Assembly (NCBI RefSeq): GCF_037042905.1
Contig: NC_087250.1
Location: 10,170,001 to 10,234,000 of the forward strand
Length of the DNA: 64,000 bases
Source of the DNA: Lytechinus pictus
Taxonomy: Eukaryota
Direction of reading: 5' to 3'
The translations under genes were made by a program, and so were the position numbers. A model generated the notes under the pieces. That model saw only the letters and a program-made list of their open reading frames with translations. It searched no databases and was not told the DNA's origin. Of the stretch, positions 6,652 to 27,311 are shown in pieces. Every line of letters starts with the position of its first letter. The stretch's first letter is position 1.

Positions 6652-6748
6652 CTTCAAGCTGGAGTCTGCTCATATCGGGTGGTGGTGGAATAGCTGGCTC
6701 CTGGTTGACTGTAAGCGCCTTGCGTACATCTCCTACATCTGATTGCAC
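6652..6748 (-). CDS. VCL: Vinculin exon 15 (end of D4 and start of Pro-rich linker), VQSDVGDVRKALTVNQEPAIPPPPDMSRLQLE, phase 0-1
   Basis: cag/gtttgt boundaries, 97 nt; corresponds to human [31 protein letters not shown]. Confidence 0.9.
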
Positions 6749-7290: not shown

Positions 7291-10200
7291 GCAATGGTGA
7301 TTTAAAAAAGAGGCCTTTGGCCTGAATACACCATATAATAATCCTTCACATTACAAATTGTATTACCTTTGACAAAGATTGGTTTCCAAACAAAATTCAG
7401 ACTGAAATGACTTTGCATAAGCCTTTGTTTTGTGTATTTTTTCAGCAAGTGCAGATGTGCATCTTTGGGCAATGTTTTGCTTTTACAAAAATGAAAAAAA
7501 ATAAAAAATAAACTAAACTGTAATTTTGCATCATCATGGAAAAAAGCTTCAGTATGGGTGAAGAATGCAAAGTTCATCTTTCTGAACATTCCTTTTTATG
7601 TTATGTTAAAAATACACTATCAAAATACAACTTATATACAGATGAATTCAGTTTGGTAAATGCAAGGTGTTCAATTATGTAATTGGTGCTGGGGAATTTG
7701 TTATCAATATCTTATTTGGTGTCCATGAAACAAAATATTTCTAAAGTTAGCATGTATATTCTGTTTTTCTTGCATAAGCTAAAGTACAAAGAAAAGCTTA
7801 AATGGAACAAAAACAAGTGGAATAATAAGGATGGTCTTCAATGTTCACATTTAAAACAGAAACAAAACAAATGATGAAAGCCATGTTCATACGCGATGCC
7901 AACACTTAGCGCTGGATTCAAATGTAAACATGATTAGTCTGAACACACTTCATAAAAACAAACAATAATACGAGTTAGTCAGAAACGTAATATATAAAAC
8001 TATTACATGCATATATCATAGAGCTGTATAGACAAAAGTAGAGTGTTAGTTTATGTACATCCGATGTACTGCAACAACACATTTTGATGCATTTCCATGA
8101 AAATACAAATATCTAAATGGTTATGGTAGCTCATACATGATGTTCGTTCAACTGGAGAACCTAAATGAAGAAAATCTCATGAGAATAGAAAAAAAAGTTG
8201 ACTTGAAGTTTATATTAACCACTTGATTGTCATGATCACAGATTCAACAAAAAACTCACATTTCGAAGCATAAATAAAACATGTTGTTAGGTTAGTCAAA
8301 TATATTGATTGCTACTTGTATCTGACATATATATAGCTACTGGTAAAGGATGATAGAGATTATTCATTCAAATACAATATATGATATAAAATACTTCACA
8401 AATAGTACAATTGTATATTTGAGGATATTCAAGTAATGAGAACAAAAGTAAAGAGTCAGATACTCAATAGAAGTCAATATCTTAGATGAGAATCATTTTG
8501 ATGTGTCAAAGAGATAAAGATTTTGTGCACATTGACAAGAAGGTATATAATATTGATATAGGACTGCACTATGTTGCTTATTTGGATAGTCAATTTTCAT
8601 GATTTCAAAGCAAGATATTATGTCCCCTGTGAATTGTAAAATAATGCTTGCAAACAACATTCTACAATTTATGTTGTATGGGCATTACAAAACAGTCTCG
8701 AGAAATGATGGAGTTGACAATTTCATGGCCCTTCCATTCCAGTTTGAAGAGATTCAAAGATAAAATTTTAAATTTATCGCCTTTTCAAAATAATCCATCA
8801 CTGTTCAAGGCATTTTCTTTGTCAGAATTTTATCTCTATTGTTCCTTTTATCCGGAGTGCTTGCATATTGTGTCACATAAAAAATGATATTGTTATTCAT
8901 GAAAGTTTCAGCTCTAACACTTTAATAATTCAAATAGAGGATATTTATTCGTTCCTAATAAGACAATACAAGTTAACACTTTTCAAGACTAGTGTCTTTA
9001 AAAACATAATACTGTTATTTATTAAAGTTTCAGCTCTATGAAACATGGATAGATCATATAATGCATATTTAATATTTTCTAATTAAGACAATAAAATTCA
9101 ACACTATTGAAGGCTAGTGTCATTTAAGAAAAACACCCTAATACTGTTATTCATGAAAGTTTCAGTTTTATCTAACACTTGGATAAATCAAATAGATAAT
9201 GTTTATCTGTTTTTATTATAGGGAAATATAGAAGTTTGTCGCAGAGTTGTGAAAACTTGTATCTCCAAATTTATAACAAATTCGGGCAACTCGAAATAGG
9301 GCAATGGTGCCAACCTCACATTGACTGAAAACAGTCTCGTAATTCCTGTAGAAGTGTTGCTACTCCTGTCTGTCACAACTTAATCGGTTTTTTTTAGTTG
9401 TCCTCACTTTTTTTTCACATGAGGGCAAAGGTAATTTTGTCCTCATAACTATGACAATTGCCCCTAAGCTTTCCCCAAAATGCATGCTTTGGGGCGACCA
9501 TTCTTACTAGAGTATCCCCAAGATCTTTCACAAACAACATTCAAGATTATTTTTAAAAATCAATATTCTAACTGTGGTAGAAAAATGACATTTGCTTTTC
9601 CCGCATACCTGCTTGTTGCTCCTAAAGATTAGCCCTTAAAATGATAGAAATATCCCCCAAAAATTATGTGATTGCCCCAATTTGAAGGAAAAAAAAAAGA
9701 AGATAGCCCCTAAAAATAAAAAAATATTTCCTATCAAGCACATTTTGATTTAAAAGATTTTAATCCCCAGCGACCATATGGTACATTACACTTCTGTGAA
9801 TATATATGATGATTCTGAAAACAACAATGCTAAAACCATACACTCCACAAAACATGAAAAACACTTAAAAATCACATGCTATCATACAACACACACACAC
9901 ACTGGAAAAAATATAAACACACAAATCTGCCACGTGGCCTTGAAGAAATAAAGAAAGAGTAATTAACGAAGACATAAATAAATCTTTGAATTTCATCTCC
10001 CTTGAAACAATTGATTCTCATTGAACACAAATAAGGGGAAAGGATTGATTGACACATTCAAACATAAGGGAAGGGACAATTTGTGAATTATATTTGTTTT
10101 ATCCCTATCAAAAAGCATTTTACTTTATTAGTCAACTCTCATGGGCCATTTCCCGCTAATTTTTTAATTAACTATACGATTGCCCAACCTGGTGTTTGGA

Positions 10201-10560
10201 ACAGGCACCTGGACCATGTTGCACAAAATATATTCACTGATGGTAACATTGTTATCAATGACATCTTATAAGAAACCTTGTTTTTGACTGGTCTTTATAA
10301 AAAAAATTGTGACTAGTATTGAACTTGACATTGTTGTCATCCTTACATTTACTGTATGTTACATTTCATGCAAGAAGAAGGGGGAAGTGTAAAATGAATA
10401 AGATGAATATTCAAAACACCATGAATATTCATAACATGAAATGAGAATAGGTACAGACATGTAAACAGTGGCACGATGCAAATGCAGTAAATGAATATTC
10501 TAATTGTGGACAGCACTCATGAATAATTCAACAGGACACAGGATGCAGTGATTGTTCGAC

Positions 10561-10692
10561 CTGTCTTGGCTTGGGATGCGTGGTGGGCGGAGCCGATCTC
10601 ACAGGGGGCGGGGCATAAGTAGGAGTCTCTACCGATGGCGTGCTAGGGTAATTTGGGAACGTTTTCAGCACGGCGTCCAAGTCGTCTTGTAT
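10561..10692 (-). CDS. VCL: Putative alternative hinge exon H7, IQDDLDAVLKTFPNYPSTPSVETPTYAPPPVRSAPPTTHPKPRQ, phase 0-0
   Basis: ctgctcccatatag acceptor, CAG|gtcgaa donor (or read-through to VEQSLHPVSC*); 132 nt CpG-rich island. Confidence 0.68.
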
Positions 10693-13600
10693 CTATATGG
10701 GAGCAGTGTGTGCAAGCAAACGTGATTGGCGGGTTAAACGTGATGTCATCAGCTTATTAATCAATCTGATATTGAGACAATCAGCCATCTACTTTCCATG
10801 GCTGATGGCTACTGTTATAATATGTAAAAATAAATCAAACCTAAATTTAGCGCAGTGAGCATACATATATTCAATCTCTTTATGGTTTTTACATGTCTAT
10901 ACATACACTTCTATTACAATGTTTACAACTAAAACTACATTTTTTCTTAAATACAACAATAAATGTGGCATGGTGAAGCATGTCTATGATGCATTCCAAG
11001 TGTCATTTTGCTCAAGATCTTGCATGGTATTCCAGAAAAATCTTCAGAATTTATTTTAAGAAATGGATTGTCTGATTCTGTTGAAAAAAAAAATATTTTC
11101 AAATGCCTTGGCTTTCTACAAATTCTTTCACCAATTTGAAATACCATCGTGTTAACATACCTACATGTGATATACATGAAGACATACAATATATAACCAT
11201 ATATATCAGACAAATAATCAGTAATAGTATACACAATCCCCTTTGGGAGTACGATAATGGGGGCGGGGATTCTTGATAAGCTAAAAAGAAGCCATGCAAT
11301 TTGCGGATGCCTTGATATGAATACAAATCACAATAAAGAAACATTTAAAAAATATGATTTTCAAAAGATCAACCATGAAGAATGTTAACCCTTAATCAGA
11401 GGTAGTAATATATTCAGACCAAGATTTTTGCAGACATCACTGCCAAGGATTATATTTTTTCCCCTTTTTTGCACATACCATACCTTAGGGAAACCTCAGA
11501 CTTCGATCCGTTATTTGAGGCTCTCATTGAATGGCTTCTACATTCAATCATTGTGTGGATTATTGTTGATCAATACTGAAAAATCATACACATACATGTA
11601 CATCATTTGAAAGCTTAAGATGGGCTATTTCAAGCTCAATATAAATCTCAAAATTCATTTTGGCAGACTTAAGTTGGTTTTGGGGTGGTGGGTCACAATT
11701 GTGGTCAACACTAAACCTAATTAAATATATCCTACAAATTTGGCACAATTAAACTTTTTTTGTGATGTTGAAAACACATTCAACTGGTTGATTTGTTGAA
11801 AGTTTGAGACTATGTAAAATTCCATTTAACGTTTTATACAGAACCGTAGCTACATACATGTACACATTAACAATTGAGTTCCAAATTCATGCCTGTTTGT
11901 CCTGGCAATTTTTCCTCAATGTTTACCAAAGTCTACAAATGGCAAAACTAAACCCATTAAAGACCGAGCATCTGGGACCCATCATACAAAGATTTACGAT
12001 TGATCTGATCAACCTCAATTGTATGGAAATCCATCAATGTCATAATTTTTTTTACAGGATATTTGCAGGATGTCCTTTTGTTAACGAAGAGAAGCACACT
12101 GAATTTTCAATAAAAAAATGAATGTGTGAATAAACAGCATATCTAGAAAATATTTTGAACAAACATGCATTTTAGATGTTGACGTTGACATTGCTGGCTT
12201 TCCATAGTTGTGATTGATCAGATCAATCTCAACTCTTTGTAAGACGGGACCCTGCTTTCTGCTAGGGTTGTAGCATACCCAGCCAGTCTCAGAATGGTAT
12301 TCTTTCTCCATCCATAGAACAATGGAGCAAAGTGGTTGCTCTTGTTCAATCGTGAATACAACAAGAATCAATGCACAAATAGTTGAGTAAACTGACTGAT
12401 AACAAAAGTATTTCAAGAATTAGATTAAAATAAAATGGAATTCATGGATATGACTCTCACAGTACTAACAGATTTTGATTGCTCCAATCGAAATCATTTA
12501 TAGATAGTGCATTAACAAAATATTGCATGAAGCATTGGCTGGTACTGACAGGACAAGCAGGGCTATAATCTATACCATCACACTACTATTCATTTGCATT
12601 GCAACAGTTAATCATTCATATCATATATTACATTCCTGCACTTGTTCACCAACTATGTACAGATAACTACACATTTACATGTACATGCAAGCTATTAAAC
12701 ATCTAAACACACACTGCCTTTCGCCTGATTGTCAGCAAAACTGTTCAACTTTTCATGGCCTTGAAGGACAATATCTCTGGCATATTCAATGAGGTGCTTT
12801 TCATGTTCTAGCTCTGGAAAGACAGTTTTTCAGCAAGAACAGGCTCCAGGGTGGCCTTTCATAAAGCTGTTCATGAGTTAAGAGCAACTTTATGCACAAC
12901 TTTGTTCATAACTTTATTCACAACTGATGACATATCATGTGCTAAATAAGCTAGCCTAATTTTTGTAAAATTGGGAGTGAATTTCCTATATCAAATTTGG
13001 ACAAATCATTCATTTTGCATGTGGACATTTGTTAATGCAAGAATTCTATTTCATAAAGATCTAATTTGAACTTAAGCTGATTGGAATTAAAAAAAATGAT
13101 AGGCATGCAAGAATAAGTAATCAGTTGTAGGTAAAGTCCTACTTATGAACAGCTTATGAAACGGCTAGCAGGATACATATAATTACCAACTTCATTTCTA
13201 CAATATCAAACATACTACAGATTCAATGGCCTACAAGCCTATCACACCGGTGTTATATTGATATACCTATAGCTACAAAGGTAATGTGGTGCATTGTTAT
13301 ACCATATATAATATGGTTTTCCTATATCATATGTGATTATTGAGCATGTATACTGTACTCACTCTAACAGGACATAGGTAGTTTGAAGAGTGAAGTCTTA
13401 AAACTTTGCCAATGAAGTCTATGGGCATGCAAAAGGTTGGGTGTCTTTATAGGGCTAAAATAGTGTGTGATACTAAAATGTATATGTACATTGGTGTGTT
13501 CAAGCCACATATGGTTTAATAGGTATAAGGGATTTAGAACTGTGGGTTGTTTCTAACACATATCTAAATAGTAAGTCAAACAGTAAATTAGCTTTATATA

Positions 13601-14509
13601 TAAGGAATTGAAAATCAAGTGGTGACTGTGTGCGGTCAATAAAGCAAATACATGTACTACATAATGGGTGCATTACACAGTATAAGGTTAAGGTGGCAAT
13701 GGTTTTAAACTAATGCATAATCTGAGGCATAAGAATTTTAAATCTAAAGCTATTATGCTATGTAGTGTGTAATGTGGGGAGAGGTGGAAAAGGGACTTAA
13801 CATGTCCTATGCACCCAATGTGATATACTTTCATTCATTATCTTTACTCATTCTCCACTGTGATTTCAAAAAGAATAAAAAAAATAATAAGACAAATTTA
13901 AAAGTGTACGTATATTTAAAAAAATTATCAAAGGAAAATAACCTGTAAAATAGGACAAAAGTAATATAGTGTAGTCACGTGGGGTTTTCACAGTTTGGCA
14001 TCTGTGTGTTTGATATCATAATTTGCACTACAAACATACACACACATATTCATACACGACTATGTACAAAACAAACAACACAATCCACCATACACAACAG
14101 ACATTTCTGACCACTCACAAATCCCGATACAAGTATGTTACAACAGAATCAGCCAATCACAAATGGGCTTGCATTCACGTATCATTCTCTTTTTAATTGG
14201 TAGAGTGCAATGACTTTTCAACACAGACGCTTGTTCTGATCGCGAGTAGCCAATCAGCTGCCTGCTTTCATTGTTAATTACACTCAACATGGGTGCTTAT
14301 GTATGGAGCTCTGCCATTGGTGCACATCTGCTCATCTGCAAATCATAGTATTTTGTTAGTGTGCAATAAAGGGGGTAAAATAAAAAATTTACAAAATCAT
14401 AAATCAAATATAAAAAAAAAACATTTAAGTGCAACATGAATATACAAAGGAGGAAAAATTAATGGAATATTTTTAGATTATGATGAAGAGAAGAAAACAA
14501 TATGAAAAC

Positions 14510-14626
14510 CTCTTGTGGAATAGTGAATGAAGGAGCCTTATGTTGACTTGCTGGATCGTGAGCAGAGGGAGCCCTCTTTGGTGAAGAACCGTGGCCGTGA
14601 GGAAAATTGCGAGATATCCCTAAGGG
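14510..14626 (-). CDS. VCL: Putative alternative hinge exon H6, PLGISRNFPHGHGSSPKRAPSAHDPASQHKAPSFTIPQE, phase 0-0
   Basis: ttctttcctaacag acceptor, GAG|gttttc donor, 117 nt GC-rich island. Confidence 0.6.
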
Positions 14627-15778
14627 CTGTTAGGAAAGAATTTGTGAGTAAATGAAGAAAGGTGTTAATAGTCAAAGTCTTCACTCCTGTGTCGTCAGCA
14701 TGCTTGTGAATCAAATAAATCAAAATCAATGCAAATCATTTATCTTTCAAGCAAATTTAAAAAATGCAGAGTTCCATTCCTTACATACTCAAAATGTGTC
14801 CTGAAATCTTGACTCATCTCTCAATCTCTCCCCCTCCCTCCCTTCCCCCTCCCCTCCCTCCCTCCCCCCTCCCCTCCCTCCCTCCCCAAATCTCTCTCTC
14901 TCCTCTCTTATATTAACTGTGAACTCGTAATTTATCAAACAACCTGCTGCATCATTTCTATATTTTGATGTTTATCTCACACAGAGTTTTACTTATTTGC
15001 TGTGAATCCTTCATTTATCTTAAATCCTGATATTACAACATCACTGACAGATAAAACTCAAACCCATCTAAAAAAAATTAAACATCAATGTCAATTATCA
15101 TAAATATAGACAAACACATCCACACCCGAGTACAATCACATAGGCCCTCACATATTAACCCACACTCATATAGGATAAAAACGTTATGATACATGTAGCC
15201 ATGAGAACATAATAGGAATTTAAACAAAATATTGAGCTTTCTTCATATCTGTACACATTAAAAACTGTCCCATTAATAAATTTTAACAAAAAAAATTGGG
15301 AGAATATGAAAAAGATCTAATCTAAAAGAATTCTGTTTGAAACTGTAATTACTTCCCATGAAGCAAACCGAAAACCGCTCGATAACTTTTCATATTACCA
15401 TCAAACCCATATTCAACTCTTCTACCTTATTTCATGTATATGAATTAAACAAAAACCAAAGTCCAAAAAATTACATTTCAAGTAAATAAAAAAAATGGAA
15501 TGTTGTTTATGTACGTCCAATGAGTTTCTCATACCTTTTGGGCCCTTTTGGATAAAATTCCAGGATATAAATTCACACATGAAGGGCTCATATAAGCAAC
15601 AATATCCCATGTTTCACTCATTCTGACCAAGAGATGGATTGGGATCGTTCTTAAATTCATATACTTGAATATACTTGTATGGTCATATCGTGGGATTCAT
15701 GTCATAATTTCAAGTCACACTTCATCTCAGAATCAAAACCAATCAGTTAAAGCATTCAAAGAGTTAATCGACAGAGAC

Positions 15779-15853
15779 CTGGTAGTCTGCAGGTTCCGAG
15801 GTGGCCTTTGGGGGTGGGGGCGGGGGAGGGGGCGGCACGGACTGCTCACCATT
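15779..15853 (-). CDS. VCL: Putative alternative hinge exon H5, NGEQSVPPPPPPPPPKATSEPADYQ, phase 0-0
   Basis: gatttcttaacag acceptor, CAG|gtctct donor, 75 nt. The poly-Pro run uses mixed codons (CCG/CCC/CCT/CCA), so it is not a microsatellite. Confidence 0.66.
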
Positions 15854-16184
15854 CTGTTAAGAAATCAAGACAATCGTTATCAGCACTTCAATCTCAGATT
15901 ATCAGTAAGGGCACGTGACAAAAAAGGTGGCTGGTAGTCACACAGCAAAAACCTGTGGTGTTTACCGGCGTACAAAGAGGACCGCACCAGTTAATTTACA
16001 CTGGGTGTTAAATTGACAGTGTTAGTTTTACACCTATAGGTGTTATTATAAAAGCTTCGGTTGTTACATTTACACCTGTTGGTGTTCTGTTCAATCCCTA
16101 GGGTGTAATTTGAACACCTCAGGGTGTGGTCCTCTATTAACACCAACTGGTGTCAGTTTTAACACCACGGTTTTTACAGTGCAC

Positions 16185-16965
16185 TAACCCGTTGGAGACT
16201 ATATTTTGCTTTTACAAATGTTTACCATAGACTCCAGGCCGCATATATCGTCAGTGATTTAATGATCTGGATCAAACCTCGGCTGGTCTCCAAAACCTGA
16301 TTTCAAGATATTCGCATTCAAAGTTTGAATGTTTTTCAGACCATGATAATTTGTGCTTTGAAAGAACTGTATCAATTAATTATAGCAATTTAAGGCATAC
16401 AGTACATTCTACTCTTTTATAATATGCAAAATTTTGTCTGCAATTCACATTTATTCTCTATTTGAAATGAAGCGCATGTATACATTTCAAAAGCTGCTAA
16501 ATTTTACTCAAAACAGGGGGTTCGAGTCACTTCGTAAAATCCCGCATACCATGCGCACTATTTTTTAGCGGCACAAACCAGATCGTGAAATCATTCATTC
16601 CGTGTGCATGATTTTTTAGAGGCACAAACCCTGCGGAAACCACATACATGTACGTGCCGCATACACGCAGCATCTCGGTCGGGTCTTTGACCTTTGCGCG
16701 TCATTCCAGAGACTTTATATTACACAAAGTACATGTATGGTTTGAGCCATTTCGTAAAATCAAAGGAGGGGGTTGAGCCGTTTCGTAAGAAATTTCAATA
16801 TGCTCTTATTCTTCAAATAATACGAATTTTAATCTGAAATTTGGCAACTCAATAGGGTGAATCACAGGCTTTTAGAATATGCAAAAAAAATAATTTCGAA
16901 AATTACGTTTGAGCCAGTTCGCAAAATCACTGACAATATTCAGGCCTAGTCCTCAACAGGTTAAG
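16185..16965. mobile_element. Nested TIR elements (outer piggyBac-like; inner TCAGTGATTT TIR element ~16247-16940), adjacent to a CACAG/CACTG MITE at 15940-16182
   Basis: Pairs of inverted termini visible by eye. Confidence 0.55.
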
Positions 16966-17154
16966 CCCCTAGAAATTTTCAAACTGGTCCCAGGTGATGC
17001 CTATTAATATTGTTAAAAACAAATTAAATTAGGAAAGAAACAAGGAGAAAAATTTCTTCCTGTAGAAAAATTATGGTCTTTTTCCTCAATGAATGTTAAC
17101 GTGTGGGGGCCGGAATAACACTTGCCCACAAGATAATCCTAAACTAAAACTACC

Positions 17155-17564
17155 ATTTGTTAAACAAATTTTCAGCATTACTCCTATTTGCTTAAGATCG
17201 GTATGCTCGATCTGTAATGAAAATCATAAGTCAGAAAAAATTGGAACCAGTTGGATTCGAACCTGCCATCTACTGCTTTCCGGGCTCCGGCTTAACCACC
17301 AGGCTATTCTGGTTCACGGCTAAACCATGATGAACTGGAATTCAAATACCCTCGATCCTCTTCTTTCTGACTCATTAATATGCCGTGGACAATAGATAGT
17401 AAATAAAGAAGCTTAAGTTTAAGGTTAAGTCGCTGCCCGGAAAGCAATAGATGGCAGGTTCAAATCCCACTGGTTCCAATTTTTTCTGACTTATGATTTT
17501 CATTACAGATCGAGCATACCGATCTTAAACAAATAGGAGTAATGCCGAAAATTTGTTAACAAAT
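17155..17564. mobile_element. Foldback element with ~140-bp inverted arms, each containing a tRNA-like Pol III module
   Basis: Arms 17155-17295 and ~17425-17564 are near-perfect reverse complements; B boxes GGTTCGAATCC / GGTTCAAATCC followed by T6. Confidence 0.75.
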
Positions 17565-17946
17565 TATAATTTCCTCCTATGAAAGCCTCTTTATTTACTA
17601 ACACTATCATCGTAGAATCATCATTTGGCTGTAACAGAAATATTAACCTAATACTAAATGAAAACCTCATGCCACGAACAATTTGGGCAATGCCTCAACA
17701 AAGTTCCCAGACAAAATAAAGCACTTAAAATTTCCTTAAATTTCAAATTTTCAGGCTCTTTAATTGTAGCTGGGAATATATTGTTTCATCTAAACTTAAG
17801 ACAAATTATATGATTTGATTCTCATGTCTGTTTTGTCCTCTTTTCTTTTTATAAAGTCCCTTGGGTATTTTAGTTAAAATGTAATTGGCAACTCATCAAT
17901 CAGATGAATTATGATTATCACTTTGATGTCATTGCAATATACTGAC

Positions 17947-18210
17947 CTCCAGGTCAACAGGGGTCATGCTGAGGTCATAGAGGGGTGAAGAGGTCACGGC
18001 AGGGTCGTGCAGAGGCTGAGGGTTCAAGCTTATTGAGGAGCTCGAGACAAAGTTTGGTTGGTTAGAGGAAGGACCACTTGTGTTAGGGTCGGAAGTTAGT
18101 GTTGGGTCATAAGGAGAGGTCATATGAAGAGGATGACCTTGGGGTCGAAGGTCAGAGGTCACAGGGTTCAAAGGATGATAGGATTGATGAGAAGCATTTG
18201 GTAGAGAATC
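17947..18210 (-). CDS. VCL: Putative alternative hinge exon H4, DSLPNASHQSYHPLNPVTSDLRPQGHP...PLYDLSMTPVDLE, phase 0-0
   Basis: ttattgacag acceptor, GAG|gtcagt donor; 264 nt open frame rich in Pro/Ser/Thr. Confidence 0.7.
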
Positions 18211-18944
18211 CTGTCAATAAGAATGGATACAGATAAGAGTAGAGAAATGACAGAACTGCACTACACTGTACAAACCATTGGGTATTTCCATTTAATGTGT
18301 ATACATGTATGTCCCTTCCCCCTACTTGTGAAACCGTCCAGAAACTATCTCTCTCCCTCTGTTCAATTTCATAATATGTAAGGTGTATTCTATTTAATTT
18401 ATTTACTCATTTATTCATTCAAATATATTTTTATATTGAATAAAAGCAATCAGCACAGAGGCTGTTTTACATTGCAGACTTTAGTACTTTGAAGTGAAAC
18501 AAGAATCTTGATAACTTCATGGAATCGCACGCTATATGCATAGTAAGCAGAACAAAATGAAAGCATGAAAGGAAACTAATTCAAATAAAATTGAGGTCTT
18601 AGAATTAATTTTTTCTGTGAAATCTATCCACTAACAAATAATATTAAATAGAAGGGGTGTCATTTTGCATCAAAAATACAATGAAGATTTTTAAATGGCT
18701 TGAAACTTATAATCATTTTTTTTTTAGGGGGGGGTTGGGGATGATACAGAAATGATATTATTAATAACGAAAATAACAGAATTACAGGTGAAGTAGTATA
18801 CAGACAAACGACCCCTCCCCCCACACAATTTTTTTATGATTGAAAAGGTGGATTTGCCAGGGGGAAAAAGACAGAAAACAGCATTTTGCAAAGGACTGTG
18901 CAGCTAAATATCAAATAAATTGGTATAATTTGAACGAGGGTAAC

Positions 18945-19070
18945 CTCATTGTAAAAGGAAGTTGAAGGATGGGAGGAAGGCTGAGGATGATCAGTTAAAG
19001 GGTTGTCATGGTGATAGGGATGGCCATTCATGGATGACATGTAAGGTTGGTTGGAGTCAGCATATGAAGG
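18945..19070 (-). CDS. VCL: Putative alternative hinge exon H3, PSYADSNQPYMSSMNGHPYHHDNPLTDHPQPSSHPSTSFYNE, phase 0-0
   Basis: cctgtccccttacag acceptor, GAG|gttacc donor, 126 nt. Confidence 0.65.
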
Positions 19071-19753
19071 CTGTAAGGGGACAGGATCGAAATAAACCAG
19101 GTAAAAAACCAACTACTGTTAACACTGTCAAATGCATTATTATTTTTCGTTGGGTCATGAATTAGGAAGGAATGAAAATATAAAAAGCACTTTCAAATGC
19201 TTTTTTTCTCCTTTATTTGTATTATGAATTAAAAAGGATTGTACAAATTCTATAACGATGCAAACTCCATGCATTTATTTATCATTATATCCCCCCGCAA
19301 CTTTTTTTTTAAAGAAAGGGTATAAAAAAAATCAATGGTTAAATAGTTAGCCCACCAATATCATCTTGTATCTAAGATTTTTAAAGTCATATATCAGCTT
19401 GTACATCTGTCAATGTCCAATAACATTTTTTTTTTTTAATAGAATGTAAATTTCATACTTGCAAACAGTGTAGTTTACAGAATAGGGAAAAAGTGAAGAA
19501 AAAATGAAACATGCCTTTATAGATAAGACAAACTATAATTTTTTAACAAATTCTTGATCATTATTGGTGAAACAGGTTTTTTCCCAAATAAGATGTTGAC
19601 TCTTTCTATTCATTACAGACACTTACATGTAGCAGATAAAAATATATGACATTGTTTAGGCCTAACCACATGTGTACCTTGTGACATGAATGGAATTATG
19701 TTACAACATGAATATTCAATATATTAATGAATATTCAATAGATAATAATGAAC

Positions 19754-19873
19754 CTGGTAAGAGGGTGTGGCTTGGTTGGCGTAGGCGGAGCTTGGAGGTG
19801 GAGGGGGCACGGCTGGTGCACTCTCTGTTGCGTAGCCGGACGATGCTTGGATTGGATCAAAGGACGGCCCTCT
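19754..19873 (-). CDS. VCL: Putative alternative hinge exon H2, RGPSFDPIQASSGYATESAPAVPPPPPSSAYANQATPSYQ, phase 0-0
   Basis: GC-rich island; tttctatccatag acceptor, CAG|gttcat donor, 120 nt. Confidence 0.68.
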
Positions 19874-21784
19874 CTATGGATAGAAACCGCCCAATCAATA
19901 GATCATGAATATGCATGCCTAAAACTAAAACTTAAAATTTGTATTTCTACAAAATACACATTTACACATCAGCATAGGGAGTCCCTTTATTGTGTCTATA
20001 GGTTCAAAGTACATTTACCAATGTTCATTAGGTTCAATTACTTGAAAATTCTAATTTAATTTTGAACTTTGGGTTCTAAGGAATGGATTCGATTTAGATA
20101 TAATTTCAGGAATAGATTGAAATACAATTCTTCTAGTTTTACAAATTAAATGGATAAAAATGATGCTGCCTAGAAATAATAAATTACTACCAATAGTATT
20201 CATTTGTAAATTGTCTTTTATAAAGTGCAATAAATGAATTGAAATGCGTTGAATTGAATTATTCTGATGATTAATAAAATTCTTTATCCATCTTTAAAAA
20301 TAAATACATAAAGACTTTTTGATTATGAAATTACATTATCACTATTCCACATCCATTTGAGGTTTGTACTTAGGAAAAGAATAAAAAATGTCTGAATAGG
20401 TACAGATATGAAATTTAAATCCTACTTTTTTACTATAGAATATTAATTTATCAAATTAAATAAAAGATATATGCCTAACACAAGAAGATAAATTCTTCAG
20501 TAAAAATGACATGTACTTCCATGCAGACAGGTGCAAAACATGTACAATGCAATTACAGATTACACATGGTCTTATGGACATCATAATAGTGTGCTGTATA
20601 CACAGTGCATCTGTTTGAATTATTACCTGGAGGGAGACTTTTGTGTACTCTATACCATGTAGTACTACTTATATTTCAAAAGTTTGAAAATGATGAGTAA
20701 TAATTTGCAATCATTTTATGCTGTAATAATTTGTGGAACAGTACTTTCATAACCCGGGTTATCATTTTTACACTAAAACAATTTGGTAATTTCAGCATAA
20801 CTTCATGCAATATACAAGTGTGTTTCTTTTTGTTTTTCTTGTTTCAAATAAAAACTTGTTGGGCAGAAGATAATGATTATTCCCTATCAAGATAAAAGAA
20901 AACCAAGTTTTTCATGCAAAAATCATTGATTTTATTTATATCTTGCTAGCAATAGGCATTGGTATTTATCCACTTAAAATACAAATCATGTAACTCTACA
21001 AGGCACACCTCCTTATAATAATTTAAAAAAAATTATCCTCTTATATTCTTGCAGTTTCATATAAACTAGGATTACTTTAGAGGGAGAATACATGTACATC
21101 CATGGTATGTAATTAGCCCCAAAATTTAAAGAACTGCCTAATTTTCATGCAATCTTGATTGATTTCATTTCAATCTTGTCAGCAATTGGCATTGGAACTG
21201 ATCCAAATAAAACAAACAATTATTTACAATAGATTCCTCAGAGAAAACAACACACAAACATTCTCATTTCTTACATGTACTTAGTATGCACAGTTTACAC
21301 ACACAATCAAAATACACAAATGTAATCAATAAGACACAGTCTTCATAAAAAGATACACACAATAGTCGTACATATATACATTCTCACTTAGTATACACAC
21401 ACACACATACACACAACATAGAGCAAGCTTGAACATGTATCAGCCACTAACCATTTCACACACTTACGATAATCACTTTTCAATCCCAGGTCAAACATCA
21501 CATGCCTAACCCTTCATTCCATTCTATTATCATTTTACATCAGGAATTTTATTAAGATTTTAGGTTGCATATTACAGTATGATTGTCGGTATTTAAGGAT
21601 GCATATCCCACGGTCAAAATTTCATGCAATGATATTGAAGGCCATTGCCTTGGATGCCTTATTCATTAGCCTCAAAGTCCCTTTCATGGGCCTACAGAAA
21701 TGTTGTGTGCCTTTTGTTTTCCTCAATTGTACTGTAATATGGGGAAAATCCAGTGGCCTTCCCAAAAAGATGTAATGATCTTGT

Positions 21785-22105
21785 AATTTATAATGCGCTT
21801 AAGACATGCACTGTAAGTATTGAAGCACTGAGAATTTATTGTTACCCCAGTCGTCGGACTCATTCAGACATGATTGCACACAATGTATGCACATCCTCCC
21901 CTCCCTGGGGAGGATTCCAGCCAGTCGCCATTGAGGCGCACAGAGTATGCAACAATGACTTTCACATCCTACCGGGTTCCCATTTAGCACCTGGGTGGAG
22001 AGTGGCAAAGGGTGGATTAACGCCTTGCCAAAGGATGCTAGGCCATGGTGGGATTCGAGCACACGACCCTCTGATTACAAGGCGAGATTCGGAACCACTA
22101 CATGA
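21785..22105 (-). mobile_element. tRNA-derived SINE with conserved-domain-like centre and L2-like tail
   Basis: Degenerate head (GTAGTGG...GCTCGAATCCC), central CCTTTGGCAAG...CCACCCAGGTGCTAAATGGG, tail TTAAGCGCATTATAAAT similar to the LINE 3' end at 5010-5070. Confidence 0.7.
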
Positions 22106-23592
22106 AGACTCTTCAATGTAAGACCCATTACTATGGCAAACAAAGGCAATCCCCCTCACATTCATGTACACACATTTGAAAGCTGAGCATTCACTTTACA
22201 ATTCCCCTTTTTAAAATTTCTCTCAACAGAAGGTCTTCACTGTTTATCTTCTTTAATCACAAATATCTCTTATCATTCCCAACCCCCCCCCCCCTCCTTA
22301 AAAAAAATAATTTGCTATTGGGTGCAATCAGGATATGAGTGTTTCACAAAGCAACTTGCTCATGATTTTCACTGGCAATTCACTCTCAGCCAATCATATT
22401 CAAGCATTTGTGTAGCTTGAAACAGCTGTCAGTGAAAATCACAGGGAAAGAGCTTTGTGATATGGGCCCCTGATGTGGAGGTATATTATATGCAATCTAA
22501 TTGAATATCATGAAACTGTCAGGGGGTGGGGTTCTACATACTCATTTACATGCTGTTAGCTGATTGGTTGCTCCACTCCACTGTGCTTATGAATATTCAT
22601 CAGGTCATCAACCATGCTGTGGGCAAGAGATATATACATGGATCTAAAATGTTAGATAAACACAGCTGCCAACCATTAGAAGTGTACTGTTAACAAATGC
22701 CTAATGCCAGATTGAAAAACACAATCATAACATTTAAAGCATCATGGTCCGTTTTCTGAACTCGGGTTTTATGCAAACTCTGGTCTTCATGAAGTTGCGG
22801 TCTATCTATTGATAGCCAATTGTCACAAAGATATTGAATAGTACATGCTTGACTTAACGGCTTATTTTTCACTCAGATCATTAATACACATAACTCTCTG
22901 GGAATTCTGGGAATTTTAACAGTTTTCTTTTTGCGATCATATCAAGAGCACAGAAAACAAAAGAAACATACAATGTGAACAAAATTTGAGCATTTTTTAC
23001 TGCCTACAATTTTAGTGCAGAGTTTAATAGACAAGATTCTAAGCAGACTTCAGAATACAGGCCAAAATGTGTATATTCCGTGCATACAAATTCTGCATTC
23101 TTGAAGCTGATTACTTTCAATGCACTCTCAATTATTCGAAGCTGTGAGGAATACGTCATGAACAGCTTTCAAATGAATATTAAAAAACATGTGAAATTTT
23201 CTGCAATGGTTGGCAACTTTTGAGGAAGGAAAAGTACAGTGACCTGCAAATTAGTACGCTATATGCATGGCAGGAGAAAAGATTAGATTGATAAATGTAC
23301 ATAAATTGGCATATGATTAATAAATTCTTTACATAAATCATGTGTTTTTACTCACATTAAGAGCATTCTACATGTACATGTATATGAATCACACAAAACA
23401 AGTACATACATGTACACAAAACTGGACAAAAATCGGTCTTCACACATTTACTCATGCTACAAAAAATAAGCTTGTTTTGATTCTTTGGTTAGCTTGCTAC
23501 ACTTTTCGTGAATGATTAATGAGGGAGGAAGTTAAATGGGGACTCATTTGCATATCGCTTTGCATATGATCTGCGTGAATTAGGTCAACAAC

Positions 23593-23715
23593 CTGTGGCA
23601 CTGCAGAATGTTCCATCGCTCCCATGGGGGGAAGAGGAGGTGGTGGTGGGAGGGACTGCTCCAGAGGAATTTCGACCGTGAGAGGGATTCGCACAGCTGC
23701 TATTGACTTCCTCAA
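23593..23715 (-). CDS. VCL: Putative alternative hinge exon H1, LRKSIAAVRIPLTVEIPLEQSLPPPPPLPPMGAMEHSAVPQ, phase 0-0 (paralog-like to exon 15)
   Basis: Strong acceptor ttctttttcccttag; 123 nt if the donor is CAG|gttgtt. The 3' end is uncertain because the frame stays open to a stop at 23497. Confidence 0.72.
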
Positions 23716-24452
23716 CTAAGGGAAAAAGAAACTCATACATATTCATTGCGAACAAAAGAAAATCAATATTCATTCATGTATGAAAAAATAAAACCAAATT
23801 CACGTAAAATAAATTCAAATATATAGATCAATCTGATACATAAATATTAATGAAAATAAATAATGAATATGAATTTAAATACATCATAACTACATGTATA
23901 ACTGAAAATACATCCTACAAAATTAATATATGACAAATAAAGTAACATCCTTATTTAGGAAATGCCAAAGATGTATTAATCAAAGTATTTAAGTAGCATC
24001 CACAACAAATCCTGTTTTTATTAACAAAAAGTAAGCATTATCAATCAGGAAACACTAAAAAAACATAAAATATTCTCTCAATAAAAAACAATCATAATAA
24101 AAAAAATAATACAAGATTGATAATAATGAAATGCAATTCATATATTTTGCAGGAATGAAAAGTTGATTCCAGAAATATGTGAATAGCAAGAAATAAATAC
24201 ATTATACAACCAACATATCTGAAGTTCAAAATCATCTTTGACTCATATTAAAGAAAAATATTAAGAACAAAATCATATGAAAGACAGATTCACATACTCT
24301 GCAAATTGCTCCCATATTAAGGAATGAATTCACTTTTAATTTCCAATGATAATGATTAATTTTAGAACAAGAAATTTTCTTTCAAAAAACATACAGGTGT
24401 CGGAAGAAAAAAATTGAGTAGAATAAATGAATAACCGGGTATTACAGCTTAA

Positions 24453-25787
24453 AGGAGAATGAAACCCAAAATGTAATACCACATAATATCATTGATAAGT
24501 AAATGATAATCAAAATGAATCCACTTATACCCAAATCCGATTTCCCAGAGTGGAGTACCACCTCTTCAAAGTTGGGCTTCTTCACGTTCAAAGTCTCTAA
24601 ATGGAGATCGCCATTGTTGCGAGGTTCATTCAAAATCGTGACGTCAGCGACGTACAACTGCTCTCGGTACTAACTTCCATGTGCAGCTAGTCACAGGCTG
24701 AAACCAACCCCGAGTTTGCATAATATAGATAATTTTTTACAAGATATGAATATAATATACACATAAAACACTTTAAATAATTATCAAAAAGCTATTCAAA
24801 TTATTTTATGGTTTAAAACACAAATTGATGAGTTTTGATGAAAATGTTTACACATTTATTTACGATATCCAAATTGGCAAATTTGACAAAGCTAAATTTG
24901 TTCGTAGACAGTATACAGCCACCCACTCATCACACGTATTGCGAGGTTAGTATATAGCTAGCACCGTGAACCGCGTTTTTCAGTGGATTTCTATCTAGTG
25001 GGTCGCGCGTGCTGGGATCTTCCTTCTGGTGTCCACAACACACGACTTCCATGGCTTGATTTTTCTGTGCGCGGCAGCATGTAATGAACTCTTGAGTGCC
25101 GACCGCCGGCCCCTGAACCGAGTGATCGTGTTGACTTTTATGTTGGAAGTTTGGTTGTTTATCCCGTTTGAATATCGTTAAATTGTTAATTGTGCTATAT
25201 TTCAATATATCTAACGTTGTTTATTATTTGTTACCGTCGATTTAAGTATTATCGGACGTTTGTATTGAAATAGAACTTAGTTAGAAGGCCTGAGAGCCTA
25301 CGACTTCAAGCCCCAATACTCGGCCGAAGAAATCGGTAAAATGCTCGCTACCAACAACATCATTCCTCTTGAATTTGGAAGAAATGTAGTTTTTTTCCAC
25401 CTTTAGTGCAGCCAATCATTTTTAAAGAGATTTCTGGCCTCTTCTGCGGATCAGGAATTTGGCAAAAGCTGCATTTTGTGCCCCTTACTGACCTATTTTC
25501 GGCAGCCAGATCCACTCTGGCCCATGTATTTTATGCTAGCAATCAAAGGCGAGTGCCGAGGTCGGACATCGAGTTGTACGTCGCTGACGTCACAACCCCC
25601 CACAGAGATATAGGGAGGATGAGCAAAATGGCGATCTCCACGGGTCTTTCAAAATCAAAATATTGATAACTTTGACTTGGCATATCATGGGAAATAGGAA
25701 ACCGTTCTGCCTCATTTTACTTTTATTTTAATCAGTGAAATGTAATCAGTTAATGACCAGATAATAAATCTATCCTTTCATTTTCCT
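24453..25787. mobile_element. Non-autonomous TTAA-target DNA transposon (Kolobok-like), 1.3 kb
   Basis: ttaa|AGGAGAATGA ... TCATTTTCCT|ttaa termini; internal inverted GTGACGTCAGCGACGTACAACT (~24638 and ~25571). Confidence 0.7.
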
Positions 25788-26810
25788 TTAACATCTGCAT
25801 ACAAAATCATAGATATTTATCTACAATATGATTTCTGCAATAAACAAAATATATTAAACACTTTCTTTTGCCATATTGTAAGATAAAACAAACGAGGATT
25901 ATCAAAAAGTACTCTCATAAATATTTTTACATTATGGGAGGAGTCTAAAAGGAATAGATCTGTGCCAATACTTGCCATACATATTATCCCATTTACACTA
26001 TCTATAATATGTACAAGTGAGTTTTCATTTACTTAATAGTACTTGATTTGAGAAAGTGAGCAATGTCCAATTCCAGTTTACAAAAAATTATTGCCACATT
26101 TAAATGATTCAGAACAAAATGGTTCAACAAAGTTAATTTACCCCCCAAAAAACAACTATTCCTGGGGAGCGTTTCATCAACATTTTTATCTGACAAGTTA
26201 TCAGCTCTGACAACTTTCCTTGATTATGATTGGCTGAGAGGCATCGTTACCATAGCAACTGTCGGATAAAACAGTACTTGTCGGATAAAACGTCTGACAA
26301 TTCCTTTCATGAAACTGTTTCATGAAAGCTGTTTGTAATATAAGAGTGACTAAACAAAAGACAGGTAATCTTTTCTTGTAGTATTATGTGCACTGTATTT
26401 TCATTGGTGTGGATTTAGCTCCTGAGAAAGGATCACCAGTCGTTTGTAAAGTCGCTTTTAACTTAAGAACCGCTTGATGAAACACCCACCAGGTAAATGG
26501 GACAATATAAATGACAAGAGAGGGCACCAGGGGGCAGTTTCATAAAGCTGTTCGTAATTTAAGAGCGACTTTAAGAACGACTGGTGAACCCTTCTTATGC
26601 GCTAAACCATCGCCAATACAATATACCATTTACCCAAGAAAGGATCACCAGTCGTTCTTAAAGTTGCTCTTAACTTATAAACACCTTTATGAAACCCCCA
26701 CCTGTAATAGTGGTAAATATATGCACATTGCTATATAGATATTTATATGATTTATATATTGGTTAATATAATGATTATATACTGTAATGGTTAATAAAAT
26801 GATATATCAC

Positions 26811-26902
26811 CTGTTTATTTGCTGAATACCAATGGTCTTGTCCATTCCGGTCATTGGGGTTTTGGGAAACTGTCTTAGCTGCTATCACAGAAGCTGGTAT
26901 AT
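26811..26902 (-). CDS. VCL: Vinculin exon 14, (D)IPASVIAAKTVSQNPNDRNGQDHWYSANKQ, phase 1-0
   Basis: tag/gtgata boundaries, 92 nt; corresponds to human [30 protein letters not shown] and fits both neighbouring phases. Confidence 0.88.
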
Positions 26903-27311
26903 CTAATATTGGATTAGAGCACAATCATGACGATTAATGAATAGTAAACATAATTAAAAAAAATAACAATATACAAGAGTCCCAAGCTCATATTGCTAAA
27001 CATACTGCATTCATTTGGCATCTGCCATTAATTTAGAAATTTGTTGATTAATGATCTATTAAAAAATGGCAATACAAAGGAAACTTTACAACAACAAAAA
27101 AATTCCCAAAGCCTTTCACATATTTTCAGGGGGATTCGTGCTTGAAAAATTAAGCAAAAGTGCAGCCATGAAAACAAAAAAATACTAAGGTTGCCTATCT
27201 GAAGAACAACAGCATAACAAAAAGTGTTCCCACTAAGTAATCATCCAAATGGGTTGGCAAAGGAAATTGTAATCTGCCCAACCCATTGCCCCATGACCCT
27301 TGACCTCTGAC

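Follow-up and report, generated by a model that had tools for sequence, protein, structure and literature searches.

A probable array of seven cassette exons at the head-tail hinge of vinculin in the sea urchin Lytechinus pictus

Results

The window analyzed here, 64,000 nucleotides of the Lytechinus pictus genome (assembly GCF_037042905.1, contig NC_087250.1, positions 10,170,001 to 10,234,000), contains the vinculin gene on its minus strand. Matches to the Pfam family Vinculin (PF01044), obtained in 9 of 150 minus-strand open reading frames (ORFs) of one search and in 3 of 114 of another, show that the gene spans the stretch between about 44.7 kb and a point below 0.6 kb. Two constitutive exons, numbered 14 and 15 as in an earlier note on this DNA, were placed by tblastn and exact junctions. 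Exon 14 (26811-26903, minus strand) ends in ANKQ at 26811 with the phase 0 donor AAACAG/GTGATA and aligned to human vinculin through R823, within the last helix of domain D4. Exon 15 (VQSDVGDVRKALTVNQEPAIPPPPDMSRLQLE; 6652-6748, minus strand) has the acceptor ...TATATCAG/GTG, starts in phase 0 and ends in phase 1, and aligned to human vinculin from I824 to ...FPPPPPDLEQLRL. Given its match to the corresponding vinculin segment of amphioxus, fish and horseshoe crab (hhalign P 1.3e-8), exon 15 is, as judged by sequence, the orthologue of the ancestral exon carrying the helix end and the first poly-proline stretch. A second constant proline-rich exon (AAPPRPPLPGDVPPPRPPPPED...; 4709-4821, minus strand), found by tblastn, exact junction and human alignment, corresponds by the same kind of comparison to the stretch that binds vinexin in vertebrates. 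A tandem array of about eight units of about 68 nt was found at 6742-7281 using TRF and reading of the units. Its last unit is the exon 15 acceptor, and the units contain pseudo-acceptors and CAGGTAAGAAGT donor-like motifs.

The interval from exon 14 to exon 15 measures about 20.06 kb and has a GC content of 0.343. The earlier note had described seven islands here, each preceded by AG, followed by GT and open in frame 0. This anatomy was confirmed in full, and all seven islands lie on the minus strand between 26811-26903 and 6652-6748. The island lengths of 123, 120, 126, 264, 75, 117 and 132 nt are divisible by three and amount to 319 codons. The islands contain the quoted peptides LPPPPP, VPPPPP, P9 and RGPSFDPIQ..., and all seven cassette junctions of model X2 share the phase 0 of exon 14. 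H1 (23593-23715, 41 codons) and H7 (10561-10692, 44 codons) were identified by the open AG/GT frame, tblastn, gene models and exact junctions. The first 12 residues of H1 (LRKSIAAVRIPL) continue the D4 helix and are followed by LPPPPPLPP. H7 begins with IQDDLDAVLKTF, continues with FPNYPSTPS...YAPPPVRSAPP and has a weak donor (CAG/GTCGAA). Open frame, tblastn, models and junctions also identified the inner module H2 (19754-19873, 40 codons) with the VPPPPP motif, H5 (15779-15853, 25 codons), which contains nine consecutive prolines, and the inner module H6 (14510-14626, 39 codons). H4 (17947-18210, 88 codons), an inner module rich in Ser, Pro, Thr and His, was assigned by protein identity, tblastn and junctions, while H3 (18945-19070, 42 codons), rich in Tyr, His and Ser, is a probable exon recognized by its open AG/GT frame and its homology to S. 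purpuratus.

We counted how often such intervals arise in the 20 kb between exons 14 and 15, taking every AG...GT interval of at least 75 nt that is open in frame 0 and a multiple of three in length. They are commonplace, the minus strand holding 202 and the plus strand 212, and a crude filter (pyrimidine tract of at least 0.7, donor matching at least 6 of 9 positions) was passed by just two of the seven islands. The 25 most proline-rich of the 202 minus-strand candidates all overlap islands, the seven islands rank between 1 and 21, and the top plus-strand candidate reaches a proline fraction of 0.15. Island GC lies between 0.45 and 0.69, compared to 0.343 for the whole interval. The islands are distinguished by composition, by identity to annotated proteins and by conservation in other urchins, not by these formal properties. 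The donors share a further feature: a pyrimidine at position +3 (GTY) occurs in 7/7 H exons, but in only 2 of the 16 remaining vinculin donors (Fisher p = 1.5e-4). Since all seven H donors are therefore weak, inclusion of these exons should depend on splicing regulators.

Six islands are letter-for-letter exact substrings of NCBI isoform models named vinculin-like in L. pictus, and H4 matches XP_063956942.1, recorded as "vinculin-like isoform X2 [Lytechinus pictus]", with 100% identity and 100% coverage. The cassette is thus not hidden, as the earlier note had it, with six of the seven exons already present in models of the locus (X1, X2, X3, X5, X6, X7 and XP_054757278). Nor is such an isoform system without precedent, since S. 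purpuratus, L. variegatus, Diadema, a sea cucumber and a sea star have comparable annotated series. What stood of the proposed modular, spliced hinge is that the islands belong to vinculin, sit where head and tail are linked and are combined modularly in gene models; six of them had been annotated before. Given the six exons in public models, the finding is mostly ordinary. H3 was absent from every Lytechinus model examined, and no protein in a collection of 5.8 billion shared three 5-residue words with it. In the open literature we found no paper describing echinoid cassette isoforms.

We compared the RefSeq series of L. pictus (XP_063956941-47), S. purpuratus (X1-X6), L. variegatus (XP_0414668xx) and Diadema. 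These represent the same gene with the same exons, and counterparts of all seven occur in S. purpuratus X1/X2; they differ in that H3 is missing from the Lytechinus models, and the records are automatic predictions. Twenty-four protein models from five echinoid species all read the cassette in frame, flanked by exons 14 and 15, and contain 11 cassette combinations reaching exon 15. The extremes are a form without any cassette exon (951 aa) and S. purpuratus X1 with all seven (1332 aa). The exon directly behind exon 14 is H1 in 19 models, H7 in three, exon 15 in two and one of H2-H6 in none, and H2 occurs only immediately after H1. Models with H1 only, H7 only and H1 plus H7 are all present. 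H4 is left out of L. pictus X5, X6 and X7, H5 of X6 and X7, and H7 of L. pictus X3 and S. purpuratus X2. The H1-H2-H5-H6-H7 form is common to L. pictus X5 and S. purpuratus X3, and the forms with H7 alone, H1 alone or no cassette each occur in both L. variegatus and S. purpuratus. Model pipelines such as that of NCBI also draw on proteins of related species, so finding an isoform again in a second species counts as only partly independent evidence.

The exons differ markedly in conservation. Identity to S. purpuratus is 95% for both H1 and H7 and 86% for the folded head; compared to Diadema setosum, the values are 80% for H1, 75% for H7 and 75% for the head. Identities to S. purpuratus and Diadema are 80% and 62% for H2, 82% and 58% for H6, and 62% and 40% for H4, the least conserved module, which in S. 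purpuratus is enlarged by an internal repeat that leaves a 49-residue gap. H5 is without counterpart in the Diadema models. H3 is about 50% identical to its homologue in S. purpuratus vinculin X1/X2, which likewise sits between H2 and H4; residues 801-848 of X1 match 19103-18939 (tblastn, E 7e-8) with two frame-keeping indels. All indels of H3, H4, H5 and H6 relative to S. purpuratus keep the frame, and across the urchin species compared the inner exons stay open, frame-neutral and in the same order. Beyond urchins, the hinge of both Apostichopus japonicus X7 (1197 aa) and Patiria miniata X3 (1065 aa) is long and rich in Pro and Ser, begins with an H1-like sequence and contains a second exon-15-like copy.

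Searches for known families and motifs gave little. No cassette exon had a Pfam family or an Atlas neighbour, none of the 43 plus-strand ORFs of the interval matched Pfam, and neither did the island-holding minus-strand ORFs, barring chance-level matches. No Rfam family and no tRNA was found within 6-27 kb, and the PPxY pattern of WW ligands had no match in the cassette. The [FLWY]PPPP motif binds EVH1 domains; its only match is in H1, and exon 15 of L. pictus has IPPPP.

RNA reads came from three raw L. pictus runs of unstated tissue, of which about 6 in 100 of each were read. In this sample depth was 0 to 0.57 in the H-exon bins and 1.1 to 3.1 in the exon 15 bin, which also contains the tandem repeat. 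None of the 15 RNA joints listed was an H-exon splice (236 further joints exist besides these). Most placed reads fell within intronic repeats and were only 90-95% alike. In run X1, two contigs continue without a break from H4 across its donor, as the genomic sequence does, and therefore represent DNA or unspliced RNA. With this sampling, the comparison is compatible with tissue-restricted use of the H exons.

Among the eight exons (H1-H7 and exon 15), only H1, H7 and exon 15 carry hydrophobic residues at positions 1, 5, 8 and 12 together with at most one Pro or Gly in the first ten. H1 resembles exon 15 (BLASTP E 2e-4; hhalign P 0.0018) and the helix-end segments of outgroup vinculins (hhalign P 0.0012); kinship of H7 and exon 15 was not significant (hhalign P 0.08) and BLASTP gave no alignment. 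In an AlphaFold2 model of exon14-H1-H7-exon15, the D4 helix 704-728 spans the 716/717 junction (pLDDT 94 and 85), and residues 731-858 all have pLDDT below 50. For exon14-H7-exon15, helix 704-726 spans the junction (pLDDT 92 and 79), with residues 731-817 below 50. H1 and H7 were the cassette exons included in the folded models, and both are of low confidence past their first residues. The models thus place the first 12 residues of H1 and the first 10 of H7 as the predicted end of the last head-domain helix. AlphaFold2 tends to lengthen helices, and these capping models have no negative control, no non-capping exon being found after exon 14. Since outgroup helix ends were aligned under H1, the H1 model is not independent of the homology.

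Past the H7 donor the frame stays open for 10 codons (VEQSLHPVSC and a stop; 10531-10560, minus strand) by sequence reading, and an unused donor would let read-through end a tail-less vinculin. The alternative C-terminus suggested by the earlier note has a hint in its favor, in that one D. antillarum model, isoform X3, ends just past H7 with a C-terminus (…VDQSQHPICSLLNYS) resembling the read-through peptide. Hexamers resembling polyA signals lie nearby at 10168 and 10129.

Discussion

Taken together, the seven islands are very probably alternatively spliced, phase 0/0 cassette exons that lengthen the vinculin linker of L. pictus. The missing spliced reads and near-zero depth in about 6% of three RNA runs, the 202 comparable open intervals on the minus strand and the basis of the NCBI models, which is not visible in the records, would also fit prediction artefacts, stitched by software, copied via protein alignments and hardly or never spliced. 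We consider this very unlikely, because H1 and H7 are conserved as well as or better than the folded head in both species compared, the indels of H3 to H6 preserve the frame, the sea-cucumber and sea-star models share the H1-like start and the long Pro/Ser-rich hinge, and the 25 most proline-rich candidates all fall on islands; so small a share of the RNA leaves room for tissue-restricted use. That the islands form a gene of their own within the vinculin intron is scarcely credible. Although the interval is long and the cassette shows no similarity to the vinculin Pfam model, all 24 models read the islands in frame from exon 14 to exon 15 with phases that fit both flanks, and the first residues of H1 are, by outgroup alignment, a copy of the ancestral end of the D4 helix. 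The interval also lacks Pfam families beyond chance-level matches, Rfam families and tRNAs of its own.

A different question is what the array does. With the same anatomy, H1 and H7 could be docking peptides and H2-H6 a fast-evolving spacer, linker length not being regulated. The strong identity of H1 and H7 to S. purpuratus compared to that of H3 and H4, the lack of H5 in Diadema, the repeat expansion of H4, the isoforms with H1, H7 or both, and the sole [FLWY]PPPP match in H1 all point this way. On the contrary, the inner exons remain open, ordered and frame-neutral in the urchins compared, and H4, or H4 together with H5, is skipped separately in models, which suggests that graded length is in use. 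We regard the docking account as possible, if somewhat doubtful.

Optional exons in vinculin have parallels. Metavinculin, the vertebrate muscle splice form, likewise gains length from an optional frame-keeping exon, its insert being given as 68 residues in PMC6726196 and PMC3365496. There it is one exon inside the actin-binding tail, where, according to PMC2873289, the insert replaces a tail helix, whereas the urchin array comprises seven exons at the border of D4 and hinge and is modelled as disordered (H1 and H7 folded). According to PMC2148117, chicken vinculin binds VASP through residues 842-846 and has its vinexin site within 849-893, and the hinge is a short segment with high conservation between C. 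elegans and human. Urchin exons 15 and 16 align to the vertebrate hinge, including PPPP and APPRPPLP...PPPRPPPP, but urchin isoforms place as many as 277 residues before it in annotated form, or 319 if H3 is counted, and in Lytechinus the [FLWY]PPPP pattern is on H1 and not on exon 15. The horseshoe crab Tachypleus tridentatus (isoform X7) also lengthens the proline-rich hinge by several optional exons, with many isoforms in public records. Its insert follows the first poly-Pro exon (...PPPPDMQNLYITE to APPRPPLP), one junction further on than in urchins, and no sequence likeness to the urchin cassette was seen in the one arthropod protein compared. The different junction and the lack of likeness suggest that the arthropod and urchin arrays arose independently. 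The PEVK spring of titin consists of many small frame-neutral exons encoding proline-rich disorder, and their differential inclusion sets connector length. Titin is a different protein without homology to vinculin; the likeness lies in a flexible connector of variable length built from frame-neutral exons, and by this analogy we infer that the urchin hinge may act as a comparable spring.

For the cassette reading favored here, we propose that 0 to 319 residues rich in Pro, Ser, Thr, His and Tyr would be inserted at the equivalent of human R823/I824, which falls within the final D4 helix of the head and 18 residues ahead of the VASP-binding FPPPP. H1, H7 or exon 15 alone would join exon 14, the amphipathic start of each completing the D4 helix, and H2-H6 would be inner modules riding after H1. 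The head-tail linker would thereby range from about 50 to about 330 residues with the six annotated exons (+277 aa) and reach about 370 with H3, and long forms would bring extra poly-proline in H1 (LPPPPP), H2 (P5) and H5 (P9). Tissues or stages may differ in which of these isoforms they make. With a longer linker, the effective concentration of head and tail for one another would fall and the contour reach would grow by as much as about 100 nm, and the long forms would raise the valency for candidate EVH1 and profilin-type partners.

A Vinculin Gene on the Minus Strand

Scanning all 264 minus-strand ORFs with 45 or more codons against Pfam revealed a vinculin gene that runs on the minus strand from ~44.7 kb down to below 0.6 kb. 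PF01044 matches lie on both sides of the islands studied here, in 9 ORFs of a first batch of 150 and 3 of a second batch of 114. We mapped the gene by tblastn of XP_063956942.1 and its cluster mates and set the exon borders by exact junction search. Exon 14 (26811-26903, minus strand) ends at 26811 in phase 0 with CAG/GTGATA, and exon 15 (6652-6748, minus strand) begins in phase 0; the ~20 kb between them is called the interval below. The L. pictus models X1-X7 (NCBI isoform names) begin with MPDLSNPV... (window ~44596-44709 and upstream) and thereby lack 35 residues compared with other urchin vinculins, which begin with MPVFHTKTIE.... A search of the minus-strand translation of the window did not find this first coding piece.

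Tandem duplications at 37977-38596, 30486-31813 and 29494-29674 each copied one head-exon end and the adjoining intron (77-93% identical), leaving intronic pseudo-exon pieces such as SLLNINNQMTMAQTWLANPDGEPSGLGK, which is followed by its own gtaag donor. A head intron contains a G-rich minisatellite (35614-36839; periods 51, 88, 101 and 259), which accounts for a GC skew peaking at +0.8 and for long, proline-like open frames on the minus strand at this position. Upstream of the gene there is a ~600-nt (TTCTCC)n run (60536-61143). Between exon 15 and exon 16, the next Pro-rich exon (4709-4821), a 440-codon minus-strand open frame (5133-6452) encodes a reverse-transcriptase domain (PF00078, E 3e-21) and is a retroelement remnant.

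Two versions of one tail exon are present on the minus strand at 2339-2467 (GEGGNKKDLIDTAKEIV...) and 603-728 (GEKTSKKELIEIAKKIA...), ~53% identical to each other. They are mutually exclusive in L. pictus X2 versus X1 and likewise in other urchin models. Since both match the same Pfam vinculin stretch (positions 717-763) and are used exclusively, they constitute a further isoform switch, distinct from the cassette, in the actin- and lipid-binding tail.

The Islands Between Exons 14 and 15 Form a Frame-Neutral Exon Cassette

Seven islands, termed H1 to H7, lie on the minus strand of the interval at 23593-23715, 19754-19873, 18945-19070, 17947-18210, 15779-15853, 14510-14626 and 10561-10692. As the earlier note had described, each is preceded by AG, followed by GT and open in frame 0, with lengths of 123, 120, 126, 264, 75, 117 and 132 nt. 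Borders and phases make all seven frame-neutral for inclusion or skipping, and an exact junction search showed that all cassette junctions of model X2 are in phase 0, matching both flanking exons. Splice borders and an open frame are weak criteria by themselves: AG...GT intervals of at least 75 nt that are open in frame 0 occur 202 times on the minus strand of the interval and 212 times on the plus strand. Composition was more discriminating. The 25 most proline-rich candidates all overlap islands, the highest proline fraction of a plus-strand candidate was 0.15, and the GC content of the islands was 0.45-0.69 versus 0.343 for the interval. A crude splice-strength filter, which kept two of the seven islands, was dropped as uninformative.

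A database search with H4 returned a single protein, XP_063956942.1 ("vinculin-like isoform X2 [Lytechinus pictus]", 1193 aa), at 100% identity over the full query. H1, H2, H4, H5, H6 and H7 are exact parts of the L. pictus models X1, X2, X3, X5, X6 and X7 and of an older record, and for these six exons an origin as chance open frames is excluded. For H3 this question turns on one cross-species match. No protein in a collection of 5.8 billion shared three words with H3. A counterpart is found between H2 and H4 in S. purpuratus X1 and X2, and tblastn of this S. purpuratus segment against the window matched H3 with E 7e-8 and 47% identity over 55 columns, including two in-frame indels. On this match we treat H3 as a candidate exon.

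The earlier note had proposed a hidden set of modular hinge exons. The modular part of this proposal is supported at the level of public models, where the array, at the border between the hinge and D4, the last vinculin head domain before it, occurs in many combinations. The term "hidden" has to be given up for the six exons annotated in L. pictus models and applies to H3, for which there is no Lytechinus record.

Pro makes up 21.6% of the cassette and Ser 14.4%; Trp and Cys are absent. Pfam searches with each H exon yielded nothing beyond one chance-level match at E 4.5. Among Atlas neighbours, the best scores for the whole cassette were 0.77 and 0.76, and H7 had no usable match. Class I ligands of EVH1 (Ena/VASP) domains carry the motif [FLWY]PPPP. 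A pattern search of the cassette found this motif in H1 only, as LPPPP, which by pattern fits an EVH1 ligand and is a putative site; H1 of Diadema carries FPPPPP, and L. pictus exon 15 has IPPPP. H2 contains a run of five prolines and H5 a run of nine, and the pattern search detected no PPxY in the cassette. H7 begins with ..DDLDAVLKTF. The consensus of paxillin-type LD motifs is LDxLLxxL; H7 agrees with it at L, D and the third L and has V and F in place of two leucines. This LD-like start, which might bind the vinculin tail, had no Pfam and no Atlas match.

Public Models Combine the Cassette Exons in Many Ways

A search with the X2 hinge retrieved 14 proteins, all of them echinoid vinculins (three from L. 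pictus, six from S. purpuratus, three from L. variegatus and two from Diadema). We then read the exon content of 24 echinoid vinculin protein models by script and found 11 different combinations of cassette exons that continue into exon 15. The short forms contain no cassette exon, H1, H7, or H1 and H7. Longer forms are H1-H2-H6-H7, H1-H2-H5-H6-H7, H1-H2-H4-H5-H6-H7 and, with H7 omitted, H1-H2-H4-H5-H6. All seven exons, and all seven minus H7, were also found, and Diadema setosum has H1-H2-H4-H6-H7. Across the models six exons are used optionally in L. pictus and L. variegatus, and all seven in S. purpuratus. Entry into the cassette is restricted: exon 14 is joined to H1 in 19 of the 24 models, to H7 in three and to exon 15 in two; none joins it to any of H2-H6.

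Conservation of the Cassette in Echinoids and Other Echinoderms

Conservation was compared at the protein level. Identity to S. purpuratus was 86% for the head, 95% for H1, 80% for H2, 62% for H4, 76% for H5, 82% for H6, 95% for H7 and 90% for exon 15. Against Diadema setosum the values were 75% (head), 80% (H1), 62% (H2), 40% (H4), 58% (H6), 75% (H7) and 78% (exon 15); the value for H5 (8%, mostly gaps) was omitted because Diadema has no H5 counterpart. Measured against the head, H1 and H7 show that the end exons of the cassette are constrained at least as much as the folded domains. Exon 14, which is structured, is far less conserved than the optional H1 and H7, with 67% identity for S. purpuratus and 35% for Diadema.

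Two further explanations of the islands were considered. One is that the cassette exons are prediction artefacts, which is unlikely because H1 and H7 are conserved beyond the level of the head and the indels keep the frame. The coding-type, frame-preserving conservation in related urchins that the earlier note had named as a check is present at the protein level. Alternatively, the islands could belong to a separate gene nested in the interval. We saw no sign of such a gene: none of the 43 plus-strand ORFs of the interval matched a Pfam family, and Rfam and tRNA scans of 6-27 kb were empty.

Beyond echinoids, 1901 relatives were found among 1.84 billion representatives. Of ten sequences retrieved and eight looked up by name, two were informative, Apostichopus japonicus X7 (sea cucumber, 1197 aa) and Patiria miniata X3 (sea star, 1065 aa). 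Both have long, Pro/Ser-rich hinges with an H1-like segment first and a second exon-15-like copy last; the middle resembles the cassette in composition only. The horseshoe crab model Tachypleus X7 differs from the urchins in that its insert lies one junction downstream, behind the first poly-Pro exon. Ten representatives (P0065, P0067, P0068, P0070, P0075, P0077, P0079, P0083, P0085 and P0094) are giant proteins of 3,200-4,900 residues that end in a stretch of ~170 residues with a match to the vinculin tail (identity 33-38%, E between 1e-44 and 1e-60).

The Cassette Is Inserted at the End of D4

Alignment of the cassette-free form placed the junction of exons 14 and 15 between R823 and I824 of human vinculin. 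From there it is 12 residues to the end of D4 and 18 to F842. PMC2148117 gives the VASP site as residues 842-846. A metavinculin-type insert was ruled out: the metavinculin insert lies inside the tail domain, whereas the urchin insertion is found at the end of D4, ahead of the hinge and outside the tail domain.

Hydrophobic residues at positions 1, 5, 8 and 12, together with at most one Pro or Gly in the first ten residues, occur only in H1, H7 and exon 15. In the AlphaFold2 model of L. variegatus X1 (exon 14-H1-H7-exon 15; mean pLDDT 79.5), the last D4 helix (704-728) spans the 716/717 junction and stops after the twelfth residue of H1, with pLDDT 94 and 85 for the helix blocks and <50 for 731-858. 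In the model of L. variegatus X2 (exon 14-H7-exon 15) the helix covers 704-726 (block pLDDT 92 and 79; 731-817 <50). In the X1 alignment outgroup helix ends sit under H1, while under H7 in the X2 alignment there are echinoid H7 sequences only, and this pair of helix-capping models has no negative-control isoform. The LD-like stretch of H7 is non-helical in the model with H1 and H7, and part of the D4 helix when H7 directly follows exon 14.

By sequence comparison, exon 15 is the orthologue of a segment that amphioxus, fish and horseshoe crab have in single copy (hhalign P 1.3e-8). H1 resembles both exon 15 (hhalign P 0.0018, BLASTP E 2e-4) and the outgroups (hhalign P 0.0012), and is probably a duplicate of an ancestral exon encoding the D4 helix end and FPPPP. 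For H7 we saw no significant likeness to exon 15 (no BLASTP alignment, hhalign P 0.08) or to H1 (BLASTP E 15, hhalign P 0.15).

Weak Donors and a Possible Early End

In animal donor sites position +3 is mostly a purine. All seven H exons have a pyrimidine there (GTT or GTC), compared with two of the gene's remaining 16 donors within the window (Fisher p = 1.5e-4), and one of these two belongs to exon 15. Rbfox-type GCATG motifs were not enriched near the H exons (seven within 300 nt versus ~6 expected; 29 in 21.5 kb).

A tandem array at 6742-7281, with ~8 units of ~68 nt, ends in the unit that forms the exon 15 acceptor. The acceptor core recurs unchanged in one unit, near 7183, and other units bear the donor-like motif CAGGTAAGAAGT, which is near-perfect. 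Such an array may serve as a set of decoy splice sites before the exon that closes the cassette.

Read-through of the weak H7 donor would add VEQSLHPVSC and a stop (10531-10560, minus strand). Diadema antillarum isoform X3 ends with ...VDQSQHPICSLLNYS at the same place, after H7, and PolyA-like hexamers are located at 10168 and 10129. Read-through behind H7 is a possible source of a conserved tail-less vinculin, judged from these endings. Behind H1 a 3/6 match arises by chance, showing that short likenesses such as that of the H7 read-through can be accidental.

RNA Reads Over the Interval

A sequencing-run search with H4 found no run recorded as RNA that contains it. We placed three raw RNA runs of the same species label, ~6% of each run being read, and one contig set on 6653-26652. 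Most placed reads, in run X18 19586 out of 23753, had a likeness of 90-95% and fell on intronic repeats, a degree of likeness which indicates that they derive from other genomic copies. These read-rich repeats lie at 11989-12655, 16658-17991 (within a repeat-dominated stretch of 16.0-18.0 kb), 21327-22660 and 25996-26652, with depths from hundreds to ~1500. Bins with H exons had a depth of 0-0.57 and the bin of exon 15, which also contains the tandem repeat, 1.1-3.1; in the latter the first mate was always on the plus strand. No H-exon joint was among the 15 joints listed, besides which there were 236 further joints, in ~6% of three repeat-dominated runs. The near-zero depth over the H exons would fit low inclusion in those samples. 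An element at ~21952-22102 shows sharp read ends and a GGATTCGAGC stretch reminiscent of a tRNA-type B box; no Rfam family or tRNA was detected in 6-27 kb, this element included.

Discussion

The urchin vinculin gene contains a frame-neutral array of weak-donor exons at the D4/hinge border, with three alternative helix-capping entry exons and many combinations in the models. Exons and combinations are already in public databases and the weight of the finding is modest. Among 8.1 million open papers and 0.36 million preprints we found no account of echinoderm vinculin hinge isoforms. What we add is the bias towards weak donors, a rule for entry exons, H3 as a candidate, the probable duplication of H1 and the hint of a tail-less form; these are leads and not discoveries.

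PMC2148117 calls the vinculin hinge short, proline-rich and highly conserved from C. elegans to human. The hinge is commonly regarded as a short tether that does not vary; the echinoderm models change its length several-fold by exon choice. Regulated inclusion would set the head-tail tether from ~50 to ~330-370 residues and would also add poly-proline sites. By polymer reasoning, lengthening the disordered tether should reduce the effective concentration of head and tail for each other and extend their reach.

A bolder reading, which we consider rather unlikely, is that H1, H7 and exon 15 of echinoderm vinculin are capping exons which can replace one another, at least H1 having arisen by duplication of the ancestral exon, and that the splice choice sets the head-adjacent peptide, the spacer count and the hinge length. 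Each of the three would be able to finish the last D4 helix. The peptide next to the head would then be the LPPPPP EVH1-type site, the LD-like DDLDAVLKTF or the ancestral IPPPP, and the same choice would determine how many inner spacer exons follow. The weak GTY donors of all seven exons and the repeat array with decoy splice sites before exon 15 could act as regulatory handles, and an unused H7 donor would lead to a conserved tail-less vinculin.

If the isoforms are made, they would represent a natural series of variants in linker length and motif valency, which could be used to probe how tether length relates to head-tail autoinhibition, force transmission and the recruitment of Ena/VASP or profilin; L. 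pictus is an animal where such tether-length tests could be tried. Should the capping-exon reading prove true, regulated hinge length (~50-370 residues) would be a parameter of cell adhesion, both mechanical and in signalling, throughout the phylum.
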